From Gemmatimonadota bacterium (GTDB taxonomy: Bacteria; Latescibacterota; UBA2968), in NCBI GenBank assembly GCA_026705765.1, contig JAPPAB010000099.1, forward strand, positions 14,833-78,832: 64,000 bases of DNA. The letters run 5' to 3'. Made by a program: the position numbers and the translations under genes. Below, one piece after another: positions 328 to 19,406 of this stretch (position 1 is its first letter; each line of letters starts with the position of its first letter). The notes beneath the pieces were generated by a model. It was not told where the DNA came from. It saw only the letters and a list, made by a program, of their open reading frames with translations, and made no database searches.

Positions 328-2121
328 TTGAAAACGTTTATGTTCTCTTTCTCTCCCAACGATTTTCTCGCCTGTAATGGCACGCGCATTGGTGCTGAGC
401 ATCTGCATGGGCGCATGCAAGTCCTGCGCGATGAGATCGAACCCGTCCTGACGAAACAGCATCCAGACCTCACGGCTGTTATTTCTCCTGTTTACGCGAC
501 GACGAATTTTCGCTCCAATCCCAATCGGCCGCGGGATCACGCGTGTCTCTATTTTGTCGATCGCAAGCTGAAGAAGAGCGCGTTTCCCCGGTTGCCCCAA
601 CTGGGTATTTATTTGCATCACAATGCCCTCGCTATTGGCTTTTACTCTGGGTGGTGGACATTTGAGGCGATGCAAAAGGCGATTGCGGATCGCAAGAAGT
701 TTCGCGGTCTGGTGCCGCGCAAGGGGTATCGCTGTTTGGCAGGTGATATTATTGTGGCGTCACCGGGTCGTTCGGTGCCGTGGTCGCCATCCAGACTTGA
801 CGGGGTTGATCGCTCGCTGTTTGTCGGGTCGATTCTCACGCCGGATGAAGCTGCGGTGCCGACGCTTGTCGATGATATTGAGATGGTGCTGGAGGATCTC
901 TACGCGCTGTATGCGGTGTTTACAAGGGTGAGATACCAGACTTCTAAAAGCAGTGTCGTGTATCATGTGCCCGATCCCGCAGAAGTCGGTGTTGTGCGGG
1001 ATGCGCTTGTGCCTGTGGAGGCCGAGTTGTTGTGCGATCTTTACCGGTTTACGGTGCTGAAGAATTTCCAGGTTGAGGCGGGGATGTTGTTCAATCTCTA
1101 TTTGTGTTTGAAGACCAAACCTTTTCTCATTCTGGCGGGGATATCCGGGACGGGGAAGAGTACTGTGATTCGGCTTTTGGCCGAGGCGGTCAATGGTCTG
1201 GATGAGGGGCGGGCGAGAGGGTATCGCCTTATTCCCGTGCGTCCGGATTGGAACGATGTGCGCGATTTGCTCGGGTTTGAAAATTTGCTTACGGGGGTGT
1301 TTCGTCCAGGGGCGTTGCTTCAGGCGATGTGCGAGGCACAGGACGATCCGAATCGTCCATATTTTGTGTGTTTGGACGAGATGAATCTCGCCCGGGTGGA
1401 GCACTATTTTGCCGATTTTTTGAGTGTTATGGAGACGGCGAGGCGCTCGCCCGATGGGGCGTGGACGACAGATCCGATTGAATTGGCGCAGGGTGGGGAT
1501 GTGGTGTCAACGGATGAGATGGGAGATGTGCCTTCGCGTTTGCCCATTCCGCCCAATTTGTTTGTTGCAGGTACGGTTAATATGGATGAGACGACGTATG
1601 CGTTTAGTCCCAAGGTGCTGGACAGGGCAAATACGGTTGCTTTTGATCGCGTTGATCTGGGGTTGTCGGATTATGATCCCGAGGTGCAGATTGATTCGAC
1701 GGCTCTGCGCGCCCTCGGTTCAGCACTTATTGACCGTCCCTATCGGCAGTTGGAAGATGTTCGCCACCGCGATGAGGTTGTTGCGTGGAATGAGCCGTTG
1801 GAGGAGATTAACGCGGTGCTCGCGAAGGAGGATTTGCATTTTGGCTATCGCATTCGCGATGAGGTTCTCATCTATATGGCGTATGCGCTGGATTTGATTG
1901 AGGGGCTGCCTTCAAATGCGCCGGCGTTTACGCCCCGAGATGCTTTTGATTATCAGATTTTACAAAAAATTCTCCCACGCCTGTCCGGCGCAGGAGATGA
2001 ACTTGCCGGTCTGCTGGACGCGCTGATCGCTTTTTGCGATGCCACCTATCCCCGCTCAACACACAAACTCCAGCGCGTGAAACGCCGTCTTGAACTCACG
2101 GGGTTTGTCAGTTTTTGGTAG
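328..2121 (+). CDS. McrB-family AAA+ ATPase/GTPase domain protein with an uncharacterised ~250-aa N-terminal domain; no McrC-like partner adjacent
   Basis: Walker A LILAGISGTGKST. Walker B in VCLDEMNLARVEHYF, resembling McrB DEINRA. Downstream NxxD-like VNMDETT/DRANT. TTG start at 328 or ATG at 340. Upstream sequence is AT-rich and non-coding. Confidence 0.6.
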   Translation: MKTFMFSFSPNDFLACNGTRIGAEHLHGRMQVLRDEIEPVLTKQHPDLTAVISPVYATTNFRSNPNRPRDHACLYFVDRKLKKSAFPRLPQLGIYLHHNALAIGFYSGWWTFEAMQKAIADRKKFRGLVPRKGYRCLAGDIIVASPGRSVPWSPSRLDGVDRSLFVGSILTPDEAAVPTLVDDIEMVLEDLYALYAVFTRVRYQTSKSSVVYHVPDPAEVGVVRDALVPVEAELLCDLYRFTVLKNFQVEAGMLFNLYLCLKTKPFLILAGISGTGKSTVIRLLAEAVNGLDEGRARGYRLIPVRPDWNDVRDLLGFENLLTGVFRPGALLQAMCEAQDDPNRPYFVCLDEMNLARVEHYFADFLSVMETARRSPDGAWTTDPIELAQGGDVVSTDEMGDVPSRLPIPPNLFVAGTVNMDETTYAFSPKVLDRANTVAFDRVDLGLSDYDPEVQIDSTALRALGSALIDRPYRQLEDVRHRDEVVAWNEPLEEINAVLAKEDLHFGYRIRDEVLIYMAYALDLIEGLPSNAPAFTPRDAFDYQILQKILPRLSGAGDELAGLLDALIAFCDATYPRSTHKLQRVKRRLELTGFVSFW

Positions 2122-2822: not shown

Positions 2823-3046
2823 GTCGAAGAAACAGACATAAGTCTGCGCTCTCGGTCTGCAGCAAATGCCAGGCAGGCGCGGATGTCTTCTCGTGTAAGT
2901 TCGGGAAAATCGCTCAATATTTCTTCAACAGACATGTCTGAGGCAAGATAGTCAAGTACGTCATAAACGGTGATCCGCATGCCGCGAATACACGGTTTTC
3001 CACTGCGTTTGCCCGGTTCAATGGTGATGATGTCTTGATAGTCCAT
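2819..3046 (-). CDS. DUF433 family protein, putative antitoxin
   Basis: 75 aa with IEPGKRSGKPCIRGMRITVYDVLDYL, characteristic of DUF433. Translationally coupled to the DUF5615 gene. Confidence 0.6.
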   Translation of the reverse strand: MDYQDIITIEPGKRSGKPCIRGMRITVYDVLDYLASDMSVEEILSDFPELTREDIRACLAFAADRERRLMSVSST

Positions 3047-4254: not shown

Positions 4255-5324
4255 AAATAATTTTTGTTGAGTGCGGCTTCATAGGTCAGTTTGAGGTGAT
4301 CTAATCCCGCCAATGCCTGGAGCATGGATAGATGTGTGGCACTCGGTTCGTGCATTCCGGTGAGTAAGCTATCTACGGTCTGCATGGTGTGACCGGGTGA
4401 GATTATCAGGGATGTCCATCCTTCGCCCTGAGAGACTTGTCCGGTTTTGTCGGCGACGGTTTCGAGTGCGCGCACGACTGTTGTGCCAACGGCGATGATT
4501 CGTCCGCCGTTTTTTCGCGCGTTGTTGATTGTCCGCGCTGTTTCGGCTGGTACGCGGTAGTATTCCTCATAAGGCGGTTCATCGGCTTCCAGGCTCGCCA
4601 CGCCGGTGTGCAAGATCAGGGGGGCAATTTGTATGCCTTTTGCGACTAATTTTGTGATGATTTTGGGTGTGAATGCTCTGCCTGCTGATGGCATTTCAGC
4701 GCTGCCTACTTCTGTTGCATATACGGTTTGATAATAGTCGATAGGCCAGTCGTTTTGCACATAGCCATACCGGATGGGCATGCCGTATATGTCCAGGTAG
4801 GTGTCCAGGTCATAGGGCAGGTTCAGGGTTGCTACCCACAGGCGAACAGAAGCGTCGGGGTTGTGCCGCAGTTCGGGGCGATAGGGGGCGTGTAGTTGTG
4901 CTGATCCACTACCGGGTAATGTGAAGATTTCGCCTGCCTGTGCGTGGTAAAACGGTTGCGTTGCGATACCGTTGGGTTGACGTATTTCAACTGCCCACAT
5001 GTCGGCGGGCAGTTGCGTTGATAGATGCAGTCTGAGTTCTGTTCCATCGGGCCTAATGATGGGCAGAGATGCTTTGCGCGTGCCACTGGTGTTGATGACG
5101 ACGACGTCGCCCGCATGTAATACGTCGGGCAGGTCGCGAAATGCGATGTGTTCTATCGCATCATTTTTTTGCCAGGAGACCATCAACCGAACCTGGTCCC
5201 GGCTGAGTCCGCGCGCTTCGGGCGGTTCGCCCGCTTCCAGGTTGGATGGCAGGTCGAATATTAGAGAGTCCAGTTTTGAGTCCATCATTGTGATGGGGAG
5301 TACTGTGTTGGGTATTATGGACAT
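4215..5324 (-). CDS. queA: S-adenosylmethionine:tRNA ribosyltransferase-isomerase
   Basis: Matches E. coli QueA along its length: YQTVYA, ILHTGVASL (TLHVGAGTF), IIAVGTTVVRALE (VIAVGTTSVRSLE), LTGMHEPSATHLSMLQALAG, YEAALNKNYLWHEFGD. Confidence 0.8.
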   Translation of the reverse strand: MSIIPNTVLPITMMDSKLDSLIFDLPSNLEAGEPPEARGLSRDQVRLMVSWQKNDAIEHIAFRDLPDVLHAGDVVVINTSGTRKASLPIIRPDGTELRLHLSTQLPADMWAVEIRQPNGIATQPFYHAQAGEIFTLPGSGSAQLHAPYRPELRHNPDASVRLWVATLNLPYDLDTYLDIYGMPIRYGYVQNDWPIDYYQTVYATEVGSAEMPSAGRAFTPKIITKLVAKGIQIAPLILHTGVASLEADEPPYEEYYRVPAETARTINNARKNGGRIIAVGTTVVRALETVADKTGQVSQGEGWTSLIISPGHTMQTVDSLLTGMHEPSATHLSMLQALAGLDHLKLTYEAALNKNYLWHEFGDLHLILP

Positions 5325-9918: not shown

Positions 9919-12810
9919 GTGAGTAAACATCCCGGAAAATCCTTCCCCATAACGCAGCATGTCACCGCGCTGATATGTTTTTTTTTGTCGGGTTTTGCCG
10001 GGCTGGTTTACGAAGTTGTCTGGATACGGCAGGCCGCGCTTTTGTTTGGGTCAACGACGTTTGCGGTGAGCGCGGTTTTGGCTGTTTTTTTTCTGGGTCT
10101 GGCCATTGGTGCGTATCTTTTCGGGCGCATTGGTCAACGGACTTCCCGACCGCTTATTCTTTTTGGATATGTCGAGATTGGTCTGGGTGTTCTGGCTCTG
10201 ATCAGTCCCTATGTTTTTGATTTTGCAGATTTTCTCTATGGCATCGCGTATAGACTGTTGAGCGATGCTCCTTTCCTGCGGTTTACTACCCGTCTTCTTC
10301 TGGTTGCGCTCGTCGTCCTGCCGCCTACTGTTCTGATGGGCGGTACGCTTCCTCTTTTTTGTCGTCAGTATTCGCGCGATAGCGGTAGAATTGCACGCGC
10401 TGTTGGTCTTCTTTACGGTGTCAATACGCTTGGGGCCGCATTGGGTTGTGCGGCTGCGGGTTTTGTTTTTTTGCCGGATCTGGGTCTGCGCGGTGCGATT
10501 TATATTGGTGTGGTGTGCAATATTTTGAGTGGTGTTGTTGTTCGCGCGCTGTCCATTGCCCGGGAGGATGTGTTTCCCGATTCGGGAGCGTCCCGTGGTG
10601 TGAGTGGCGGACTTCCGCGGAGCAGGGTTGTATTTGTTCTGTTTTTTGCGATTGGTTTTGTGGCTCTGGGCGCAGAGGTGCTGTGGGTGCGGTATCTGGG
10701 GCTTCTGATCAATAATACGGTTTATACTTATACGCTGACGCTGGGCGTTGTGCTGGTTGGGCTGGTTCTGGGGAGTGTTCTCGCTGCTCAGTTTTCGGAT
10801 AGGACGGATAGACGGGCGTATTATTTTGGCGCGTTTCAGGTTGCGACGGGTCTCATTGTGCTGGCTCTTTTGATGCTTTCGCCCGGGGCATGGCGAGGAT
10901 TGGGCAGTGATTTGTATATTTACTTTGCGGTGCTTTTGCCCCCTGCTGTGTTGAGTGGTGCGGCTTTTCCGCTTGCGATTCGGCTGGTGATTCGCAATGC
11001 GGCATATACGTCCGGGGTGGCTGGGAATCTGATTGCGGTGAATACGCTTGGGGGTATTCTCGGGTCTCTTTTGATTGGTTTTGTGGGGATTCCCTTTTTT
11101 GGTCTTGAGAAGAGTTTGTTTTTTATTACGGGTGCGAATCTCGCCATTGGCATTTCTGCGTGGTTTTTGCTGGATCAAAGATATCGCGTGTTCAAATATG
11201 CGGCTGCGCTGGTTGCTGTTCTGGTTTATCTGGGGATTCCGTATTTTTCGCAGACGCGGGTGCCTGCGGATTTTATCGGTGAGGGACGGGATCTGGTGGC
11301 GTTTCGAGAGGGTTATGGCGCGAATATGGCGGTTGTGCGGCGGGAGGATGATCTGGAGCTTGAGATCGATCGCTGGTGGCAGGGTGGGAGTAAGAAGAAT
11401 CATCAGATTATGGCGGCGCATGTGCCGATGCTTTTGCATCCGGATCCGAAACGGGTCGTTGTTGTGGGTGCTGGTACGGGGCAGACGGTTAGTCGTTTTT
11501 TGATGTATCCCATCGATTATCTGGCGTGTGTGGATATCGAGCCTGCGCTTTTTCCTTTTATTCGGGAATATTTTGAGACGGATTGGATGGGGGATTCGCG
11601 CGTGGAGATTATCGCTGAAGATGGGCGCAATTTTCTGCGTCATACTGCGGCGTCTTATGATATTATTTCGCTTGAGCTTGGCGAGGTGTCCCGTCCGGGT
11701 GTGGCGTTTTTTTATACGGTTGATTTCTATGCGCGTGCCCGAGAGCGCCTGAGGCCAGGTGGGTTTTTGGTGCAGTTTGTGCCGCTGCGCTTTCTGACGG
11801 AGGACCAGTTCCGCGGTGTTGTGCGCAGTTTTTTGACGGTTTTTCCGCAGAGTGTTTTGTGGTATAATACGTCTGAGCTTTTGCTTATTGGTGCGGTGGA
11901 TGATGTTTTTAATATTGCTGAGGGGAAATTGTTGGGTGTGGATGAGGCGGTGCAGGCGGATCTTCAATATAGCCACTGGGGCGGGGTGGCGTATTCTCTC
12001 AATCAGCCGCACGTTTTTTGGGGTGGTTATTTGATGGGGGCGGAGGGTCTGGCTTCTGCGACGGTTGAGGCAGATACGTATTGGGATGACCGACCGATTC
12101 TGGACTATGAGTCGGTTCAGAATGCGGAGAGCGATGAGCTTGCGTTTGCGGAGTTGCTGTATAAATATCGGGATTCTATTGATGTGTTGATGCCGGGTGA
12201 GGTGGATGCGCGTATTGCAGAGGTTCAAAATAAAAATTTGAGGGAGATCGCTGCGCGCGTTTTTGTTCGCGAGGCGTCGGATTTGATTCCCGCGCGAGAA
12301 CACAGACGTATTGCAACGCTTTGTGCCGAGGCGATTCGCCGGCTTCCCGAGTATGTGGATGCGCATCGCATGTTTGCGGATGCGATGATGCAACTGGGGC
12401 GTTTACAGGATGCGGAGAGACACTATGCGCGGGTTTTGGAACTCGATCCGACAGATGCACGCGCGCTGAATGGTCGCGCTGTGGCGTTTCACCGCGCGGG
12501 ACGGCTTGTGGAGGCGGTTCGTTCCTATGAGGATGCGATTCGCTACCATCCGGACAATGCGCTGTCGCAAAATGGTATTGCTATGGCGCTTCACAGGCTG
12601 GGGCGCTTTGATGAAGCGATTCAACACTACAAGGAGGCGATTCGCTTGCATCCGGATAGGCCCGATACGCATGCCGACCTGGGTACGGCGCTGGCACAGG
12701 CGGGGAGGTTGCGAGAGGCTGTTCCCTATTTGGAGAAGGCGCTCGCTCTTCGGCCGAATTTTACACGGGTGCAGCGGGTTCTTGAGCAGATACGCGAAGA
12801 ATTGAAGTGA
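9919..12810 (+). CDS. Fused MFS/spermidine synthase-like protein with C-terminal TPR repeats
   Basis: N-terminal polytopic membrane region, VVVVGAGTGQ SAM-MTase/spermine synthase motif, and 5-6 C-terminal TPR repeats. Confidence 0.7.
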   Translation: MSKHPGKSFPITQHVTALICFFLSGFAGLVYEVVWIRQAALLFGSTTFAVSAVLAVFFLGLAIGAYLFGRIGQRTSRPLILFGYVEIGLGVLALISPYVFDFADFLYGIAYRLLSDAPFLRFTTRLLLVALVVLPPTVLMGGTLPLFCRQYSRDSGRIARAVGLLYGVNTLGAALGCAAAGFVFLPDLGLRGAIYIGVVCNILSGVVVRALSIAREDVFPDSGASRGVSGGLPRSRVVFVLFFAIGFVALGAEVLWVRYLGLLINNTVYTYTLTLGVVLVGLVLGSVLAAQFSDRTDRRAYYFGAFQVATGLIVLALLMLSPGAWRGLGSDLYIYFAVLLPPAVLSGAAFPLAIRLVIRNAAYTSGVAGNLIAVNTLGGILGSLLIGFVGIPFFGLEKSLFFITGANLAIGISAWFLLDQRYRVFKYAAALVAVLVYLGIPYFSQTRVPADFIGEGRDLVAFREGYGANMAVVRREDDLELEIDRWWQGGSKKNHQIMAAHVPMLLHPDPKRVVVVGAGTGQTVSRFLMYPIDYLACVDIEPALFPFIREYFETDWMGDSRVEIIAEDGRNFLRHTAASYDIISLELGEVSRPGVAFFYTVDFYARARERLRPGGFLVQFVPLRFLTEDQFRGVVRSFLTVFPQSVLWYNTSELLLIGAVDDVFNIAEGKLLGVDEAVQADLQYSHWGGVAYSLNQPHVFWGGYLMGAEGLASATVEADTYWDDRPILDYESVQNAESDELAFAELLYKYRDSIDVLMPGEVDARIAEVQNKNLREIAARVFVREASDLIPAREHRRIATLCAEAIRRLPEYVDAHRMFADAMMQLGRLQDAERHYARVLELDPTDARALNGRAVAFHRAGRLVEAVRSYEDAIRYHPDNALSQNGIAMALHRLGRFDEAIQHYKEAIRLHPDRPDTHADLGTALAQAGRLREAVPYLEKALALRPNFTRVQRVLEQIREELK

Positions 12811-13787: not shown

Positions 13788-15104
13788 ATGAAGTCTTTGT
13801 CTGAACTTGAAGAGCGGATGGCTGAGGCGCAGCCGGGTGATGTGATTGGGCTGGCCGACGGCATGTATGATGGTGAGAGGTGCAGGCTCGCGGCAAGGGG
13901 GACCGCAGATCAGCCGATTGTTATTCGGGCGGAGGGTATGGGAAAGGCGGTTATAAAGGCGCCGTTGTTGCTGGTGGGAGATTATATCAGTCTTGTGGGG
14001 TTGCACTTTGTGGAAAAGGGGAGTGTGGAGATTCGGGGGCGGGGTTGTCGCATAAGTCGCTGTGTGATGACGGATGTGCAGGTTGGCAAGTGGATACGGG
14101 TGAGGGCAGAGAGTCGGGAAGTTGAGATTGATCGCTGCCGGTTTGAGAATAAGACCAATAATCTCGAGGAGACGCGCGGCTGCCAGTTGATGCAGATTTA
14201 CGTTCGCAATCAGGGCGAGAGGCACCTTGTTCACCACAATTATTTTGTCGATGTTCCGGATGGTAAGGAGAGCAATGGGTACGAGACGCTTCAGCTTATT
14301 ACGGAGGGGAATCCGTACGATCCAGAGCCGGGTGATTGTGAGACGGTTGTTGAGTACAATCTTTTTGTGCGTTGTAGTGGGGAGGCGGAGATTATTTCTG
14401 TGAAGTCCAATGGCAATATTCTCCGCAGGAATACGTTTCGCGATTGCCGGGGCGCGCTGGTGCTTCGGCATGGGGATGGCAATGTGGTGTCTGAGAATTT
14501 CTTTTTTGGCGAGGGCGAACGCCGGGCTGGCGGTGTGCGCTTGCAGGGGACGGATCAGGTTGTTGTGAATAATTTGTTCCATTCGCTCAATGCGTTTGGC
14601 GTGGGGATGATGGATGGGGCATCGGATGATCTCTATGTGCGGGTGGAGCGCGCGCTGATTGCGTTTAATACGTTTGTGGGGTGTAGTCCGGCGATGGATG
14701 TGGGGCTAAATCACAGCAGGTATCCCAATGGTACAGTGCCTAAAGATTGTGTGGTTGCGAATAATGCTTTTGTGAGATCCGATGGGACTGTGCGGCTGGT
14801 GCAGGACGATGAGCCAGTGAATTGGCGATGGGAGGGGAATGTGACAGATGGGGATTTGGGTATGCCCGATCGGGATGGGATAAAAACTGGGCGGGTCGAT
14901 GTGGATTATCTGCCCAATGGGGTTGTTGCACCGGGAGAGTCCAGTGGTTTGATTGGCAATGCCGAGGGGCATTATCCAGAGATAACGACGGATATTTTGG
15001 GGCATTCACGGGGCGAACAAAAGACGATTGGTTGCGTTGAGTTCCCGACGGGAACGGAGGACGGCGGTCCCTTAACTGCGGCAGATGTGGGACCAAGGTG
15101 GTAG
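13788..15104 (+). CDS. Right-handed parallel beta-helix polysaccharide lyase (PL6/chondroitinase-B-like)
   Basis: Repeated beta-helix rungs with NNxF/NNLFH motifs; start codon abuts the esterase stop. Confidence 0.5.
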   Translation: MKSLSELEERMAEAQPGDVIGLADGMYDGERCRLAARGTADQPIVIRAEGMGKAVIKAPLLLVGDYISLVGLHFVEKGSVEIRGRGCRISRCVMTDVQVGKWIRVRAESREVEIDRCRFENKTNNLEETRGCQLMQIYVRNQGERHLVHHNYFVDVPDGKESNGYETLQLITEGNPYDPEPGDCETVVEYNLFVRCSGEAEIISVKSNGNILRRNTFRDCRGALVLRHGDGNVVSENFFFGEGERRAGGVRLQGTDQVVVNNLFHSLNAFGVGMMDGASDDLYVRVERALIAFNTFVGCSPAMDVGLNHSRYPNGTVPKDCVVANNAFVRSDGTVRLVQDDEPVNWRWEGNVTDGDLGMPDRDGIKTGRVDVDYLPNGVVAPGESSGLIGNAEGHYPEITTDILGHSRGEQKTIGCVEFPTGTEDGGPLTAADVGPRW

Positions 15105-15106
15105 CA

Positions 15107-15439
15107 TCAATCAATAGAAACAACGAGGTTCAAGTTTTCTTTTCTTAGCGTGTCCTGCAAGGCAAGCTGCACCCAGAAGCTTTCTGGCTCGCCGAGTTGT
15201 CTGGCAATTTTGGCTGCCCTGCTGGGGCTTGGGATTCTTCTTTCTTTTTCTATATCACAAAGGCTTTGAGGGGAGATTCCCAAAAAATCAGCAAACGCTC
15301 GCTGGCTTTTTTCTTCTCCTGTTCGATAGCTGGCCAAGGCATTTCCAAATGTGAGACACCCAAAGTCTCTCTCCAGTTCAGAAGTTCCATATTGTTCTTT
15401 AGTAATCATGTTTATTGATCTCCTTAATTCCCAAATCAT
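15107..15439 (-). CDS. XRE-family helix-turn-helix transcriptional regulator
   Basis: HTH_3-like segment QRAFADFLGISPQSLCDIEKERRIPS. Sits at the edge of the low-GC islet, divergent from repeat copy A. Confidence 0.65.
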   Translation of the reverse strand: MIWELRRSINMITKEQYGTSELERDFGCLTFGNALASYRTGEEKSQRAFADFLGISPQSLCDIEKERRIPSPSRAAKIARQLGEPESFWVQLALQDTLRKENLNLVVSID

Positions 15440-15472
15440 ACGTCAAAATGACGTATGCAGCAAGTTCAACCT

Positions 15473-15527
15473 GCCTTGATATGTTTTGAAATGCGATTGA
15501 CAATATCGCGTTGTTGCTACATTTTTT
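15473..15527 (+). promoter_or_regulatory. Repeat copy A of a promoter/operator-like element (TTGACA 15497-15502, TACATT 15518-15523)
   Basis: gccttgatatgttttgaaatgcgATTGACAAtatcgcgttgttgcTACATT. Nearly identical to copy D and related to copies B and C. Confidence 0.5.
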
Positions 15528-15734
15528 ATCGGATAGTATGGATATAGTGAGAGATAGCGCAATACGATGATGCCCTGCATATCGCTTTGGCTTCGGTTGC
15601 AGAAGTCGATGTGTTGGTTAGCTGGAACTTCAAGCACATCGTACACTTTGACAAAATACGTCTATTCACCGCTGTGAACATTGAACTTGGCTATAAACCA
15701 TTACAGATATACTCTCCGCGTGAGGTGACTAATT

Positions 15735-15911
15735 ATGGAGACGAAAAAGACGTTTGATGCGGTTAAGATTGTGCGTCGGATTCGAGACGCGCACTATGAG
15801 CAACTCAAGGATAGAACGGTAAAAGAGCAATTGGCATTTTACCAAAGCAAGTCTCAGGCATTGCGTAACGACTTAAAAAAGAAATTGCAAGAGCATTATG
15901 ACGACGAATGA
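15735..15911 (+). CDS. Small hypothetical protein (58 aa), paralogue of the 62-aa ORF at 16943
   Basis: SD GAGGTGA 8 nt upstream of the ATG. Shares a VRxxRDxHxxQ core with the 62-aa protein. Below the 60-aa ORF-track cutoff. Confidence 0.5.
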   Translation: METKKTFDAVKIVRRIRDAHYEQLKDRTVKEQLAFYQSKSQALRNDLKKKLQEHYDDE

Positions 15912-16042
15912 TCCCATTGTTTCGGAAGTCCGAAAAGAGATGTGGCATAAATTTGGTCAAAAGGATTAGGCATAATTCAATATAGAAAAGGAGAGGAATC
16001 TCGATCTACTTTGATACCCATATTGTGGTGTGGTTATATGCT

Positions 16043-16090
16043 GGTCAAACCGAAATGCGGTTGACAAAATCGTGTCGTTACTACACTTTT
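16043..16090 (+). promoter_or_regulatory. Repeat copy B of the promoter/operator-like element (TTGACA 16061-16066, TACACT 16082-16087)
   Basis: gaaatgcgGTTGACAAaatcgtgtcgttacTACACTtttt upstream of the UPF0175 gene. Confidence 0.45.
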
Positions 16091-16132
16091 TCTTTCTAAG
16101 CGTAATTCAAATATGGATGAAACGGGGCGCGC

Positions 16133-16393
16133 ATGTTAAAAATTACATTTGAATGTCCAGATGATATTCTGCAGATCCTCAGTGAAACGCCTGAACAATT
16201 CGCCGAACAAGGCCGCATGCTCATCGCCGTCAAACTGTTTGAACTCGGACGTTTGTCATCGGGTCAGGCGGCTCGGTTTGCGGGCATGGAGCACGTTGTA
16301 TTTTTAGATGCCTTAAAATCCTACCAGGTATCTCCTCTCAATCTGACTCCAGAAGAATTGGCAAAGGATATTTCCAATGCTAGGAATCTGTAA
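16133..16393 (+). CDS. UPF0175 family protein (putative antitoxin)
   Basis: 86 aa with GRLSSGQAARFAGMEHVVFLDALKSY, matching the UPF0175 core. Classic partner of DUF3368/PIN-like proteins. Confidence 0.6.
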   Translation: MLKITFECPDDILQILSETPEQFAEQGRMLIAVKLFELGRLSSGQAARFAGMEHVVFLDALKSYQVSPLNLTPEELAKDISNARNL

Positions 16394-16467
16394 TGTCGAT
16401 GCGTTCCACAACCCTATTTCTACTGAATTGACCAACTGGCCTTGTTACATTGGATACGCCTCTTATT

Positions 16468-16956
16468 ATGAAACCAAAGGTATATATCGAAACCACCGTT
16501 ATTAGCTACTTGACAGCCCAACCTTCTCGCGATGTCGTAATTGCGGGACATCAACAGAGTACTCGAGATTGGTGGAAGAACGCAGCTGATCGGTTCGAAC
16601 TCGTAGCTTCACAACTGGTCCTTACCGAAGCCAGTGCTGGCGATCCGGAAGCTGCTCGTGCCCGCCTCGCAGCACTCAACTCACTGACGCTTCTCGACGC
16701 CACAGAGGAAGCCCTTGAATTAGCACAACAATTGGTCAACGCTGGCGTTGTGCCTGCAAAGGCAGCAGAAGACGCCGCTCATATTGCCATTGCAGTTGTC
16801 AACGGTATCGAATATTTGGTAACTTGGAATTATCGGCATATCGCCAATGCGACGATCCGATCACAAATCGAAACTGTATGTCGGAATGCGGGATTTGAAC
16901 CCGCGATCATCTGCACACCTGACGAACTCATGGAGCGTGATCATGACGACGAATGA
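16468..16956 (+). CDS. PIN-like (DUF3368/VapC-like) putative toxin
   Basis: N-terminal VYIETTVISYL, internal LTEASAGD, AAHIAIA, and C-terminal LVTWNYRHIAN resembling the VapC LxTRNxxDF motif. ATG at 16468 preferred over TTG at 16450. Confidence 0.5.
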   Translation: MKPKVYIETTVISYLTAQPSRDVVIAGHQQSTRDWWKNAADRFELVASQLVLTEASAGDPEAARARLAALNSLTLLDATEEALELAQQLVNAGVVPAKAAEDAAHIAIAVVNGIEYLVTWNYRHIANATIRSQIETVCRNAGFEPAIICTPDELMERDHDDE

Positions 16957-17131
16957 TCCCATTGTTTCGGAAGTCCGAGCAGTACGCGACAAACACGCTG
17001 CTCAATTCGGCTACGATCTCAAAGAGATATTCCGCGATATTAAGAAAAAACAAAAATCATCTGGTCGTAAATACGTGCAGTATCCTTCCCGTGCGGCTGT
17101 TGTAACAACTGTCACAACTTCAGACCAGTAG
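16943..17131 (+). CDS. Small hypothetical protein (62 aa), translationally coupled to the PIN-like gene
   Basis: ATGACGACGAATGA start/stop overlap with the upstream gene. Its first 12 codons are duplicated at 15899. Confidence 0.5.
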   Translation: MTTNDPIVSEVRAVRDKHAAQFGYDLKEIFRDIKKKQKSSGRKYVQYPSRAAVVTTVTTSDQ

Positions 17132-17147
17132 CTATAAAGGCAATATC

Positions 17148-17711
17148 ATGACAACGGTTTTTATTGGCGGTTCTCGTAGCATCACACGCTTGAACGACAC
17201 CATCAGGTCCACAGCGGATAACATCACGCGTCAGCATTTTGATATCGTTATCGGAGATGCAAATGGTGCTGATAAGGCTGTACAGAGCTATTTAGCAGAA
17301 AAAGCATATCGGAATGTTATCGTCTATTGTATGGATGATCACTGTCGGAACAACGTGGGAAGTTGGCCAGTAGAACAGATATATGCAGATAATCAGGTAA
17401 GGGACTTTGCATACTACACAACTAAGGATGCAAAGATGGCTCAAGTAGCGTCCTATGGCTTCATGATTTGGGATGGAAAGAGTAAGGGAACTTTGAACAA
17501 TATTCTCAACTTATTGCAGCTACAGAAGAATATCCTGGTTTATTTTTCGCCCGATAAGTCTTGTTATAAGCTCAAATCACTCAACGATCTTGATACACTC
17601 TTAGAAAAATGTAGCAGCGATATGATAGAAAAGTTCGAAAAGGAGTTCTCACTACTGGTCCCAGCGAGTTTAGAAGGTTCGAATTTTGAGATCGCATTTC
17701 CTGAAAGATAG
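17148..17711 (+). CDS. Stand-alone SLOG-domain protein (DprA/Smf- and LOG-like Rossmann fold)
   Basis: FIGGSRSI and VIGDANGADKAV resemble the DprA GSR...sGlA.GiD motif. MIWDGKSKGTLNNI resembles the LOG PGGxGTxxE motif. Local GC is low. Confidence 0.5.
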   Translation: MTTVFIGGSRSITRLNDTIRSTADNITRQHFDIVIGDANGADKAVQSYLAEKAYRNVIVYCMDDHCRNNVGSWPVEQIYADNQVRDFAYYTTKDAKMAQVASYGFMIWDGKSKGTLNNILNLLQLQKNILVYFSPDKSCYKLKSLNDLDTLLEKCSSDMIEKFEKEFSLLVPASLEGSNFEIAFPER

Positions 17712-17746
17712 GAACATGCCTTAATATGTTTTGAGATGTGGTTGAC

Positions 17747-17790
17747 AAAAGCGTACGTGTTAAACATTGACAAGTACGCTTTTTTGTTTT
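17747..17790 (+). terminator. Rho-independent terminator-like hairpin embedded in repeat copy C (TTGACA 17742-17747)
   Basis: AAAAGCGTAC-(17 nt loop containing TTGACAA)-GTACGCTTTT followed by TTGTTTTC. Lies 36 nt after the SLOG gene stop. Confidence 0.5.
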
Positions 17791-18112
17791 CTTTGACTTT
17801 CACAAGGTTATTGTGAAGTGGTCTATTTGCTTGGTTTTCCGATGAAGCAGTGCACAGCGCGTGAGTCCGTCTCGCAGCGGATGTTTTTATGGCATTTCAA
17901 CTGTGCAGGCCATTGTATAGCGCATTACCACAGAAACGATTTGCGCTGTGCCAGCCCCTCGGCGTTTGAGAGCGGCATTTTTTGCCTACTTTTTTTTGCT
18001 GTTGAAAAAAAGTAGGTCGCCGAAGGCATAAAAAGGAAAATATTTAAAAAGCTTTATACGTCGTTACACCACCACAAATGAATTATGCATATCCCTGAAA
18101 TAAGTATCCTCA

Positions 18113-18165
18113 AAAACCGAATTGCGGTTGACAATCTCGCGTTGTTGCTACATTGTTTATTTTTG
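18113..18165 (+). promoter_or_regulatory. Repeat copy D of the promoter/operator-like element (TTGACA 18127-18132, TACATT 18149-18154)
   Basis: gcgGTTGACAATctcgcgttgttgcTACATT. A 27-nt block is almost identical to copy A. Lies about 45 nt upstream of the enolase-superfamily start. Confidence 0.5.
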
Positions 18166-18197
18166 AGGAGTATTCCAATACGAGAAAAGGAAAATAT

Positions 18198-19406
18198 ATG
18201 AAAATTAAATCCGTCGAAGTCGTTCGCGTTGAACGGCCAGATACAAGCCAGGCCTCAACGGGGTCCGGTACGACGCTCGCTGCTTCAACAGGTGCAGCCC
18301 CGAGGACAAAGGGGTATCGAAAGGCGTGGCCCACGCAGATAGAGGTGGCAAATCCGATGTCCAGGTTCCCGCGGTTTAAGGCGCGTCGGCAGCTTTACGG
18401 TGCCAGACAGTGGCCCAGGTTCTCGGTTAAGGTGACCGCTGAAGATGGGACCTGGGGCCTCGGCACGTCGGCGGGACGCCCGGTTGCTATGGTGGTGGAA
18501 GATGCTTTCGCGCATATATTGGAAGGGGAGAGTTGCCTGGCTATTGAAAAGCTGTGGGATATGATGTTTCGCGTGTCCAAATCTTTTGGGACTGTGGGGA
18601 TTGCCTCGTTGGCGATTAGTGCTGTGGATCTGGCGCTGTGGGATCTGGCGGGGAAATTGCAGGGCAAGCCCGTTTATGAACTTCTGGGCGGTCCGGCGCG
18701 CGATCGTTTGTTTGTGTACGCGACGGGTGATGATGTGGATTGGTACAAGGAGTTGGGGTTTCGGGCGTTTAAGTTGCCCTGTCAATACGGTCCGGTTGAT
18801 GGGTTGTGGGGATTGGGAGAGAACGAGAGGCGAATAGCCGAGGTCCGCGAGTTGATCGGCGATGATTGCGATCTCATGCTGGATTGTTATATGGCTTTGG
18901 ATGTGGAATATACCGCGCGTTTGGCCAATCGCCTGCGTCCTTATAATCTGCGGTGGATGGAAGAGTGCCTGATTCCCGAGGATGTTGGGGGGCATATTGA
19001 ACTCAAGAAACGCCTGCCGTGGTTGACGCTTGCCAGTGGCGAGCATTTTTACACGCCGTATCCCTACCAGTTGATGATCGAAAATCGGTGTCTCGATATT
19101 CTCCAGCCCGATATTCAGTGGGTGGGGGGTTTGACTGCTTGTGTCAAAATTTGTAATATGGCTGCCGCTGCGGGGCTGGAGGTTTGTCTGCACGGCGGGG
19201 GACGCGATGCGTACGGTCAGCATTTGAGCTGGGCAATGCCCAATACCCCCTGGTGTGAGTATTTTATCGGTTCTGATCCGGGGGTACCACTTGAAGAAGT
19301 GGCGCAACCCGGCGCGTGCGTGCCGCACAATAGCTATCTGGCGTTTGCGCCGACAGGTCCGGGTTTTGATCTGGGGATTGAAGAGGATTGGTTGGTGCCG
19401 TTTTAA
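18198..19406 (+). CDS. Enolase-superfamily enzyme (mandelate racemase/muconate lactonizing enzyme family)
   Basis: MR/MLE N-terminal capping domain and TIM-barrel ligand region; start MKIKSVEV with SD GAAAAGGAAA. Confidence 0.65.

Follow-up and report, generated by a model that had tools for sequence, protein, structure and literature searches.

The 36-nucleotide repeat of a Latescibacterota toxin-antitoxin islet as the probable stub of an antitoxin-like gene in an eroded cassette

The stretch of DNA considered here (hereafter, the window) comprises 64,000 nucleotides (nt) of contig JAPPAB010000099.1, and its host is probably a sponge-associated member of the Latescibacterota, an association suggested by the literature on this phylum (PMC12993501). 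Between a Chondroitinase_B-like gene (13788-15104) and a gene of the MR_MLE enolase superfamily (18198-19406) lies an islet of ~3 kb (15.1-18.2 kb) that is low in G+C content, at 0.39-0.45 as opposed to 0.52-0.58 in the flanks, and that carries short genes resembling those of toxin-antitoxin (TA) systems. The subject of this study is a 36-nt sequence that occurs twice in the islet, once at the end of a gene of 58 amino acids (aa) and once at the start of a gene of 62 aa. In a first-pass annotation, made from the sequence alone, it had been taken for the scar of a recent tandem duplication or of recombination between module copies.

The left border of the islet is formed by a gene for an XRE/HTH_3 regulator (15107-15439, reverse strand; Pfam HTH_3, 1e-9), divergent from the first cassette, and its orthologues hold the same position in the related loci L024, L065, and L066 (loci of other genomes and assemblies are referred to by such numbers). 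The cassette features described below lie on the forward strand. Cassette 1 begins with D1a (15483-15549), a member of a family of promoter-like elements designated D1, of which a homologous copy stands upstream of an intact PIN-A gene in L009. It is followed by a 5'-deleted gene for PIN-A, a putative toxin (15563-15757), which has no start codon and retains the C-terminal ~64 codons, which match residues 95-158 of the intact PIN-A of L009 (158 aa) at 97% identity. Relative to L009, ~322 nt are missing (L009 3509-3830), covering the leader and the first ~95 codons. Next comes an intact 58-aa gene (15735-15911), the partner of PIN-A, whose last four codons and stop codon are supplied by a PIN-B tail that is part of copy 1 of the repeat; in L009, L010, and L012, an intact PIN-A gene (154-158 aa) is likewise followed by a gene of the 58-aa family.

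Copy 1 itself (15895-15933, counting one mismatch) holds the final codons of a deleted PIN-B gene and codons 1-12 of a lost 62-aa gene, here called 62a. It leads into a relic of the 3' end and downstream flank of a gene designated 58' (15925-15987, by match to L025, L015, and L064), and then into the last eight codons and stop codon (KERNLDLL*) of a homologue of the 187-aa gene of cassette 2, of a '196-aa type' (15988-16014), the rest of that gene being deleted. The latter segment aligns with the 3' end of the 196-aa gene of L009 (KEVNLDLP*) and with the intergenic region after that gene. The L009 locus has the order D1, intact PIN-A, 58::60 (a 58-aa gene fused to a 60-aa member of the 62-aa family), 196-aa gene, a segment X, D1, and MR_MLE, and relics are found in the window in the same order; window positions 15483-16113 are colinear with L009 from the first D1 to the second, save for four internal deletions in the window. 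The 58-aa gene is the sole intact gene left in cassette 1.

Cassette 2 is headed by a second element, D1b (16047-16113), and homology with the UPF0175 cassettes of L022, L023, L025, L064, L065, and L066 begins at 16052-16054. The first gene encodes a UPF0175 antitoxin-like protein (16133-16393; Pfam PF03683, 4e-25) and is followed by an intact gene for PIN-B (16468-16956), a 162-aa PIN-like protein assigned to the VapC toxin family by the database name of an identical protein and by sub-threshold Pfam matches. Its partner is an intact 62-aa gene, 62b (16943-17131), and the cassette ends with a 187-aa gene (17148-17711) that has homologues in L009, L010, L025, L064, L065, and L066 and whose product matches nothing in Pfam, NCBIfam, or PADLOC. 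A 42-codon open reading frame (ORF; 16377-16505), without a match to any family, overlaps the UPF0175 stop codon at the place where a cognate toxin would be expected, and may be another toxin-gene relic.

The two PIN proteins are related, with 28% identity between PIN-B and PIN-A (E = 1e-13) and 35% between the PIN-A relic and the PIN-B C-terminus. Each is linked to its small partner by an overlap of reading frames. In the case of PIN-B, translation of 62 starts 11 nt before the PIN-B stop codon, creating a 14-nt overlap that is also found at the unrelated loci L003, L016, L017, L019, and L021, and in the case of PIN-A, the overlap with the 58-aa gene amounts to 23 nt in L009 and L010 and to 11 nt in L012. 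Both pairs thus display the adjacent, translationally linked small partner gene expected of PIN/VapC TA systems. The islet thus contains two related module types, PIN-A/58 and PIN-B/62.

Exactly two occurrences of the 36-mer ATGACGACGAATGATCCCATTGTTTCGGAAGTCCGA were found in the window (15898-15933 and 16943-16978), with 36 of 36 nt identical, as opposed to none in 100 dinucleotide shuffles, no occurrence being expected by chance. When one mismatch is tolerated, the repeat gains 3 nt to the left (15895-15933 against 16940-16978; 39 nt, 97%). Copy 2 (16940-16978) covers the native overlap between the PIN-B stop and the 62-aa start, together with the first 12 codons of the 62-aa gene, a junction also present in PIN-B/62 modules at unrelated loci. 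A self-comparison of 15.4-17.2 kb, run as BLAST with word size 7 at low stringency, returned the repeat, one promoter-like repeat, and nothing else. Between the 36-nt copies lie 1,009 nt of unrelated sequence that hold the 58' relic, the 196-type relic, D1b, UPF0175, and PIN-B.

The first-pass annotation had reported this identity, and the self-comparison did not shorten it; of the two positions it gave, 16943 is correct and 15899 is one base off, the true start being 15898. Its ORFs of 58 aa (15735-15911), 23 codons (15898-15969), and 62 aa (16943-17131) also hold. Two points of the description need correction. The gene upstream of copy 2 is no small paralogue but the 162-aa PIN-like gene at 16468-16956, and the similar HDDE and YDDE tails of the two upstream proteins, offered as evidence of duplication, are not independent evidence, since the first 14 nt of the repeat itself, read in the other frame, code for these ...H(Y/D)DDE* endings.

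At the left edge of copy 1, the 58-aa gene is fused to a PIN-B tail and a 62 start, the sequence ...CATT being followed directly by ATGAnGAnGAATGA. The breakpoint is identical in six diverged lineages (the window, L009, L010/L011, L024, L029/L030, and L031/L032), of which the last two are non-syntenic, and the left junction must therefore be old. The 62 gene that follows it is intact in L009 (the 60-aa member of the family) and L024, and is reduced to a stub of 60 nt in L010/L011, 36 nt in the window, ~20 nt in L031/L032, and 18 nt in L029/L030. The tail H[YC]xxE is common to all members of the 58 family at 86-91% identity; distant, unfused members of the family (L012, P0079, P0080, and P0082) have other C-termini, and in the case of L012, DNA homology to the window is lost around 15889-15897. 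Such an arrangement is suggestive of a deletion that once cut PIN-B to its last codons and set an intact 62 gene right after 58, creating a unit that would then have spread or been inherited.

At the right edge, the window from 15925 onwards matches the 3' end of 58' (...DIAEVRKEMWH(K/R)FDQKD), with 95.7% identity to L025 (47 nt), 91.5% to L015, and 95.2% to L064 (62 nt), and the ~20 nt past the 58' stop codon correspond to the flank that separates 58' from the 187 leader in L064. In L003, L015, L025, and L064, 58' is located directly downstream of a 62 gene. The 9-mer GAAGTCCGA is found both in codons 10-12 of 62 and in 58' (within AEVRKE), encoding E-V-R in each, and its two occurrences are 366 nt apart in L015 and 368 nt apart in L025. 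The window keeps it once, at 15925-15933. The parental sequences are thus present in relatives in the order and orientation predicted for a microhomology-mediated deletion, with the shared 9-mer retained singly, and the right edge is best read as a window-specific deletion of ~368 nt rather than as a duplication boundary.

Because the window past 15925 corresponds to the end of 58', the 23-codon ORF (15898-15969) is a chimera, in which codons 1-12 of 62a are joined to the last 11 codons of 58'. Consistent with this, tblastn matches it to residues 1-12 of the 62-aa protein and to residues 37-58 of the 58' protein, and a three-way alignment agrees. The ORF, which is likely functionless, had been described as a 23-codon truncated copy of the 62-aa gene, whereas codons 13-23 come from 58'.

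Scars of a similar kind occur elsewhere. In L022 (~1975-2060, reverse strand), a 58-aa gene retains its first ~10 codons, which are fused to D1 at the heptamer TGCGGTT, with the 3' end of PIN-A preceding the 58-aa start and the 3' end of 58' just upstream. The 17-nt spacer between 62 and 187 (window 17129-17150) is itself a deletion scar, with the 7-mer AAAGGCA at both breakpoints, and L064 (2955-3250) retains 58' between 62 and 187; L003 (630-720) likewise has 58' after 62. A scan of JGI metagenomes with a degenerate pattern of the 58::62 junction yielded 31 loci, all of them chance matches, none of which encodes the 58-aa, the 62-aa, or a PIN protein.

The contents of ten islets at the same site, between the Chondroitinase_B-like and MR_MLE genes, were compared, some contents being partial. 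L009 holds PIN-A, 58, 62, and 196; L010 holds 195, DUF433 with DUF5615, PIN-A with 58 and a 62 stub, and further DUF433 cassettes; and L024 holds DUF433 as well as 58 and 62. UPF0175, a deleted PIN-B, and 62 are found in L025 (followed by 58' and, further on, 187), in L064 (followed by 58' and 195), and in L065 and L066 (followed by 187), while L026 contains DUF433, a deleted PIN-B, and 62, and L023 contains UPF0175. Cassette 2 is found without cassette 1 in L064, L065, L066, and L025, and 58::62 without 187 in four lineages. Of these islets, the window alone has kept an intact PIN-B. Gain, loss, and reshuffling of cassettes at this site are well supported by such differences between the sequences, in keeping with the first-pass view of an islet that evolves by cassette shuffling.

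A recent tandem duplication is not supported by these comparisons as the origin of the repeat. The copies are not head to tail, given the unrelated 1,009 nt between them; the left junction is common to six lineages and only the right one is specific to the window; and divergence is far from uniform, with 100% identity for the 62 stub (36 nt) as against 76% for D1b and the third element, D1c (67 nt). What survives of the earlier proposal is the notion of copy 1 as a scar of recombination or deletion, and the comparison with related genomes that it called for has revealed the parental arrangements of both copy-1 junctions.

In light of these arrangements, two related modules probably share a conserved gene start, of which the two 36-nt copies are examples, undamaged in one module and cut down to a stub in the other. 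Copy 1 would be, with good probability, what remains of the second antitoxin-like gene of a TA cassette eroded by small deletions, and copy 2 the intact PIN-B/62b junction. The islet would then be an array of small TA cassettes, each headed by D1. Cassette 1 would once have comprised PIN-A, 58, 62a, 58', and a 196-type gene, and would now be almost fully eroded. In a first and old step, a PIN-B deletion would have joined the 3' end of 58, with the reading frame preserved, to the final codons of PIN-B and to the 62a start that overlaps them, an arrangement that several lineages inherited. In a second step, in the lineage of the window, the ~368-nt deletion between the two 9-mers would have removed 62a from codon 13 onwards together with most of 58'. 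A third deletion, of ~322 nt, would have taken the 5' two-thirds of PIN-A, and a fourth nearly all of the 196-type gene, the order of the four events being the one that we infer. Cassette 2, in contrast, would consist of UPF0175, PIN-B, 62b, and 187, with copy 2 as its undamaged PIN-B/62b junction.

The degree of identity between the copies deserves comment. The 62 genes of the compared genomes are 90-97% identical outside the repeat and have 0-4 differences within the 36 nt. For copies that are 2.6% diverged, a 36/36 match has a calculated chance of ~0.4, and for copies that are 10% diverged, one of ~0.02, so that identity across such a short tract is a poor guide to age. The perfect match mildly favours close kinship of 62a and 62b, or gene conversion between them, and requires neither.

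Several points weigh against this explanation. The 36/36 identity is somewhat better than expected from a long-diverged 62a and 62b, and other 58-linked copies have 2-4 changes in the first 16 nt where copy 1 of the window has none, so that a recent common origin of the copies, or gene conversion, has still to be allowed for. In addition, L009 and L024 show the structure expected from recombination between the copies, with a 58 flank on the left and a 62b-type flank on the right (187 or the sequence that follows 187), and the direction of change between that structure and the window, a pop-out deletion in the one case and an insertion in the other, is set by parsimony only. The assignment of PIN-B to the PIN family, finally, consists of sub-threshold Pfam matches and a database name.

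The rival that best survives takes up the structure of L009 and L024. A recent insertion would have split the single 62 gene of an L009-like ancestor (58, 62, 187) and duplicated 36 nt, when circular or one-side-anchored DNA carrying the 58' relic, X, D1b, UPF0175, and PIN-B recombined within the first 36 nt of 62 by a Campbell-type route or by homology-facilitated illegitimate recombination, which is the nearest equivalent of the recent duplication first proposed. Besides the complete identity of the copies, this scenario draws on the fact that L009 and L024 equal the window minus a 1,045-nt unit, having one 62 gene between the two flanks just described, and on the 62-187 spacer, which is the same in the window and L009. 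The sequence to the right of copy 1 is difficult to accommodate, however, as the 58' 3' end, a fragment of the 187 leader, the last eight codons of the 196-type gene, X, and D1 are colinear with L064 and L009. An incoming element would require a very particular circular permutation to produce this order, whereas erosion in place predicts it. D1b and D1c, moreover, are no more alike than the 76% noted above.

We consider such an insertion unlikely, and independent cassettes are preferred because the relics to the right of copy 1 follow the order seen in L009 and L064, because each cassette occurs elsewhere without the other (cassette 2 without cassette 1 at four loci, and 58::62 without 187 in four lineages), and because the 62-187 junction is a microhomology deletion at the 7-nt AAAGGCA, which can recur independently.

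A second rival accepts copy 1 as an old relic and supposes that it was recently overwritten by copy 2 through gene conversion. This would account for the 2-4 differences from the canonical junction in the first 16 nt of other 58-linked copies and for their absence from copy 1 of the window. A tract of 36 nt with a mismatch 1 nt upstream would be very short for conversion, and a complete match has a probability of ~0.4-0.02 for copies that are 2.6-10% diverged. In addition, MR_MLE identities suggest that the window branches outside L009, L010, and L024, in which case one ancestral substitution and lineage-specific changes suffice to explain the pattern. Conversion is thus distinctly improbable beside the stub interpretation.

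Selection on the 36-nt segment as a cis element is a third and very improbable alternative, the segment being envisaged, for instance, as a hairpin that masks the start codon in translational coupling or as the target of a regulatory RNA. In its favour, GAUCAU...AUGAUC can pair across the 62 start and PIN-B stop codons, UCGGAAGUCCGA forms a small palindrome, and seven of the ten related lineages compared share the 20 nt CCATTGTTTCGGAAGTCCGA without change. Against it, the two copies fold no better than shuffled sequences (z = -0.25 and -0.65), and no Rfam family was detected, the only match being to transfer-messenger RNA at 18 bits against a cut-off of 47 bits, that is, noise. The segment following 58 is also cut at 18, ~20, or 60 nt in other lineages, and L025 has four substitutions within the segment in a 62 gene that is otherwise 97% identical.

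The weakest rival, an assembly artefact in the form of a chimeric join or a collapsed repeat, could draw on the metagenomic origin of the window and on short-k assemblies that do break at the repeat (three Logan contigs, L006-L008, end 25-30 nt into copy 1, and k=31 graphs break at a 36-nt repeat), but is extremely unlikely because the islet (window 15000-18300, 3.3 kb) is 100% identical in two other independent metagenome assemblies from different samples (L001/L004 and L002/L005), one with a contig named k141, a value that exceeds the length of the repeat, and because orthologues of the sequences on either side of each copy are found in other genomes. The identical contigs come from sponge-metagenome projects (ERZ27276941, ERZ23500055).

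Several comparisons bear on the assignment of PIN-B to the PIN/VapC family. The protein identical to PIN-B is named 'type II toxin-antitoxin system VapC family toxin' by NCBI. The window protein matches Pfam PIN_3 with E = 0.04, below the gathering score, and among 16 members of the PIN-B family PIN_3 matches 14 and PIN matches eight, with a best E of 5e-4, again all below the gathering score. PIN-B has no match in NCBIfam and no sequence match in PDB, and PDB searches with profiles of the PIN and 62-aa proteins gave nothing meaningful. Foldseek of an AlphaFold2 model of PIN-B against PDB found no match with E <= 0.001, a search that is uninformative given the poor model (mean predicted local distance difference test score, pLDDT, of 59). 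In alignments of the PIN proteins, E8 (D in PIN-A), E54, and D102 are conserved, and the fourth canonical acidic position is occupied by an invariant Asn, N121.

The 58- and 62-aa proteins have no significant match in Pfam, NCBIfam, or PADLOC, where only far-sub-threshold ones were seen. The VapB-like arrangement of an upstream antitoxin with a DNA-binding domain was not found, as the partner gene is located downstream. The 62-aa family is large, with 3,920 cluster representatives in a 50% identity library (E <= 1e-3) and the consensus DPIVaEVRavRDaHAArFnYDl.AIFrDi....SGR.yVryPpR, and has no Pfam or NCBIfam model of its own. As for the label of 58-aa paralogue used in the first-pass annotation, BLASTP of 58 against 62 gave no match, a narrow hhalign comparison gave 8% probability, and a hidden Markov model search ~5 bits. 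A broad profile-profile comparison by hhalign, in contrast, aligned 15 columns at 65% probability (E = 6e-5), with a shared N-terminal motif VxxVRxxRDxH. Paralogy of 58 and 62 is thus plausible from their profiles, and not established.

The history of the PIN genes in related loci gives indirect support for their role as toxins. PIN-B was removed by the same 490-nt deletion in L025, L064, L065, and L066 (corresponding to window 16437-16926), with ...AACC joined to TCATAGGGCGCGATC, and by different deletions in L015 (433 nt; 4880-4895) and L026 (~3230), and the old 58::62 fusion represents a fourth loss. PIN-A is deleted or truncated in the window, L024, L029/L030, and L031/L032. The PIN genes have been deleted at least seven independent times, and each time the neighbouring 58- or 62-aa gene has stayed intact. 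A toxin-antitoxin relation, with the PIN proteins as toxins and the small proteins as antitoxins, would be expected to yield this asymmetry between lost PIN genes and retained partners, and we infer these roles for them. After the toxin has disappeared, loss of the partner becomes possible in turn, and the stubs of 60, 36, ~20, and 18 nt would be accounted for in this way. Orphan antitoxins have been described as largely remnants of degraded TA systems, and the toxin-first pattern of loss seen here fits those descriptions (PMC7354431).

The D1 element recurs throughout the islet. Full copies lie at the heads of the two cassettes and directly upstream of the MR_MLE gene (D1c; 18114-18180), and a partial copy is located at 17713-17753. 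The element is 50-65 nt long, with the core GAAATGCGGTTGACAAnATCGCGTTGTTGCTACAyTTT. A scan of a genome collection found it only in Candidatus Latescibacterota chromosomes of 5.6-6.3 Mb, in at least five genomes (loci L009, L010, and L022-L028, as well as the window), and no copy was found in viral contigs. D1 heads unrelated cassettes, including those of UPF0175, DUF433, PIN-A, the 187-aa family, DUF2442, and a Phd-like protein, and in all cases stands before the MR_MLE gene; between genomes, homology is lost upstream of D1 and sets in at the 5' edge of the element. A scan for the sigma-70 consensus did not flag D1, because its spacer to TACAyT is 15 nt, and the element may be a Bacteroidota-like promoter of the form TTG-N18-TAnnTTT.

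In terms of function, D1 could be a shared promoter or operator, a portable stretch of homology for recombination, or a recombination site. In a more speculative scenario, which we regard as rather unlikely, D1 would be the recombination site of an integrase-independent or unrecognised mode of cassette capture in the Latescibacterota, whereby circular, D1-bearing TA cassettes enter a resident D1 promoter such as that of MR_MLE. If this were true, each cassette would bring and leave a functional promoter, and the 36-nt scar would be collateral debris.

Other observations concern the right part of the islet and its surroundings. The 187-aa protein carries a GGSR...GDANGAD motif. It is ~87% identical over residues 1-164 in L009, L010, and L025, with ~90% DNA identity in L064; the family has alternative 3' ends, of a 187-type and a 196-type, and in L010 one member makes up a D1 cassette by itself. 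Within the partial D1 copy that follows the 187-aa gene, a 17-nt inverted repeat (AAAAGCGTACGTGTTAA and TTGACAAGTACGCTTTT, separated by a 3-nt gap; 17747-17783) lies in a segment that is ~90% conserved in L010, L024, L025, and L026, with a possible role as a terminator or as a binding site for a protein. A non-coding segment of 189 nt (17852-18040), without a match in Rfam, is 90% identical to a segment of L025 that lies upstream of the 187-aa homologue there and downstream of it here, a relocation that appears to be another rearrangement. Outside the islet, a DUF433-like ORF (2861-3028, reverse strand), 50% identical to the DUF433 protein of L010, suggests a further TA locus, and an AT skew of ~-0.5 with a positive GC skew at 10000-11200, inside a 963-aa TPR/spermine-synthase-like gene, probably reflects codon or amino-acid composition.

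The islet can be set beside several known systems. Surveys of degraded TA loci and orphan antitoxins in Klebsiella pneumoniae and Mycobacterium tuberculosis have been reviewed (PMC7354431). As in degraded type II TA loci, the toxin is lost and the small partner kept, remnants of partners adjoin it, and many partial systems are present per genome. What differs is that the order of erosion can be read here from about a dozen related loci with intermediate states, and that no curated antitoxin family includes the 58- or the 62-aa proteins. VapBC systems resemble the islet in pairing a ~160-aa PIN-like protein with a small overlapping gene and in forming multiple paralogous copies in TA islands. 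Unlike vapBC, the toxin gene comes first and the partner second, as in higBA and hicAB, the partner is without a recognisable DNA-binding domain, the fourth acidic position is N121, and membership of the PIN family comes by way of sub-threshold profiles.

The deletions resemble those that arise between short direct repeats by illegitimate recombination or slipped misalignment, in that a 9-mer present in both parents is kept once and that the 62-187 junction shows the same with a 7-mer. Here, the 9-mer encodes EVR in two possibly related proteins, and the microhomology may therefore trace homology. Sedentary chromosomal integron arrays are similar in their small, mostly TA-type cassettes, gathered at one site in variable content and order, with a repeat at every boundary. 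Unlike the repeats of integrons, D1 is located at the 5' end of cassettes, is promoter-like, has no attC-like inverted-repeat arms, and also precedes a flanking gene of housekeeping type; a search for an inverted-repeat pair within D1 was negative, and D1 does not stand at the 3' ends of cassettes. For an integron integrase, the 64-kb window was searched by tblastn with a single query, a Phage_integrase protein of L016, and within the limits of that test no match was obtained.

The feature is, in sum, an ordinary pseudogene stub in a decaying TA cassette, a product of routine genome erosion. Its value is that of a worked example of the TA life cycle, in which the toxin is lost, the orphan partner persists, and erosion proceeds by microhomology deletion, with about a dozen natural intermediates to illustrate the process. 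The repeated deletion of PIN genes with retention of 58 or 62 argues that these uncharacterised small proteins are antitoxins, and D1 may explain the reshuffling of the islet. The cassette-head element, which is the most novel by-product of the analysis, and the uncharacterised 62-aa family are the parts worth further attention.

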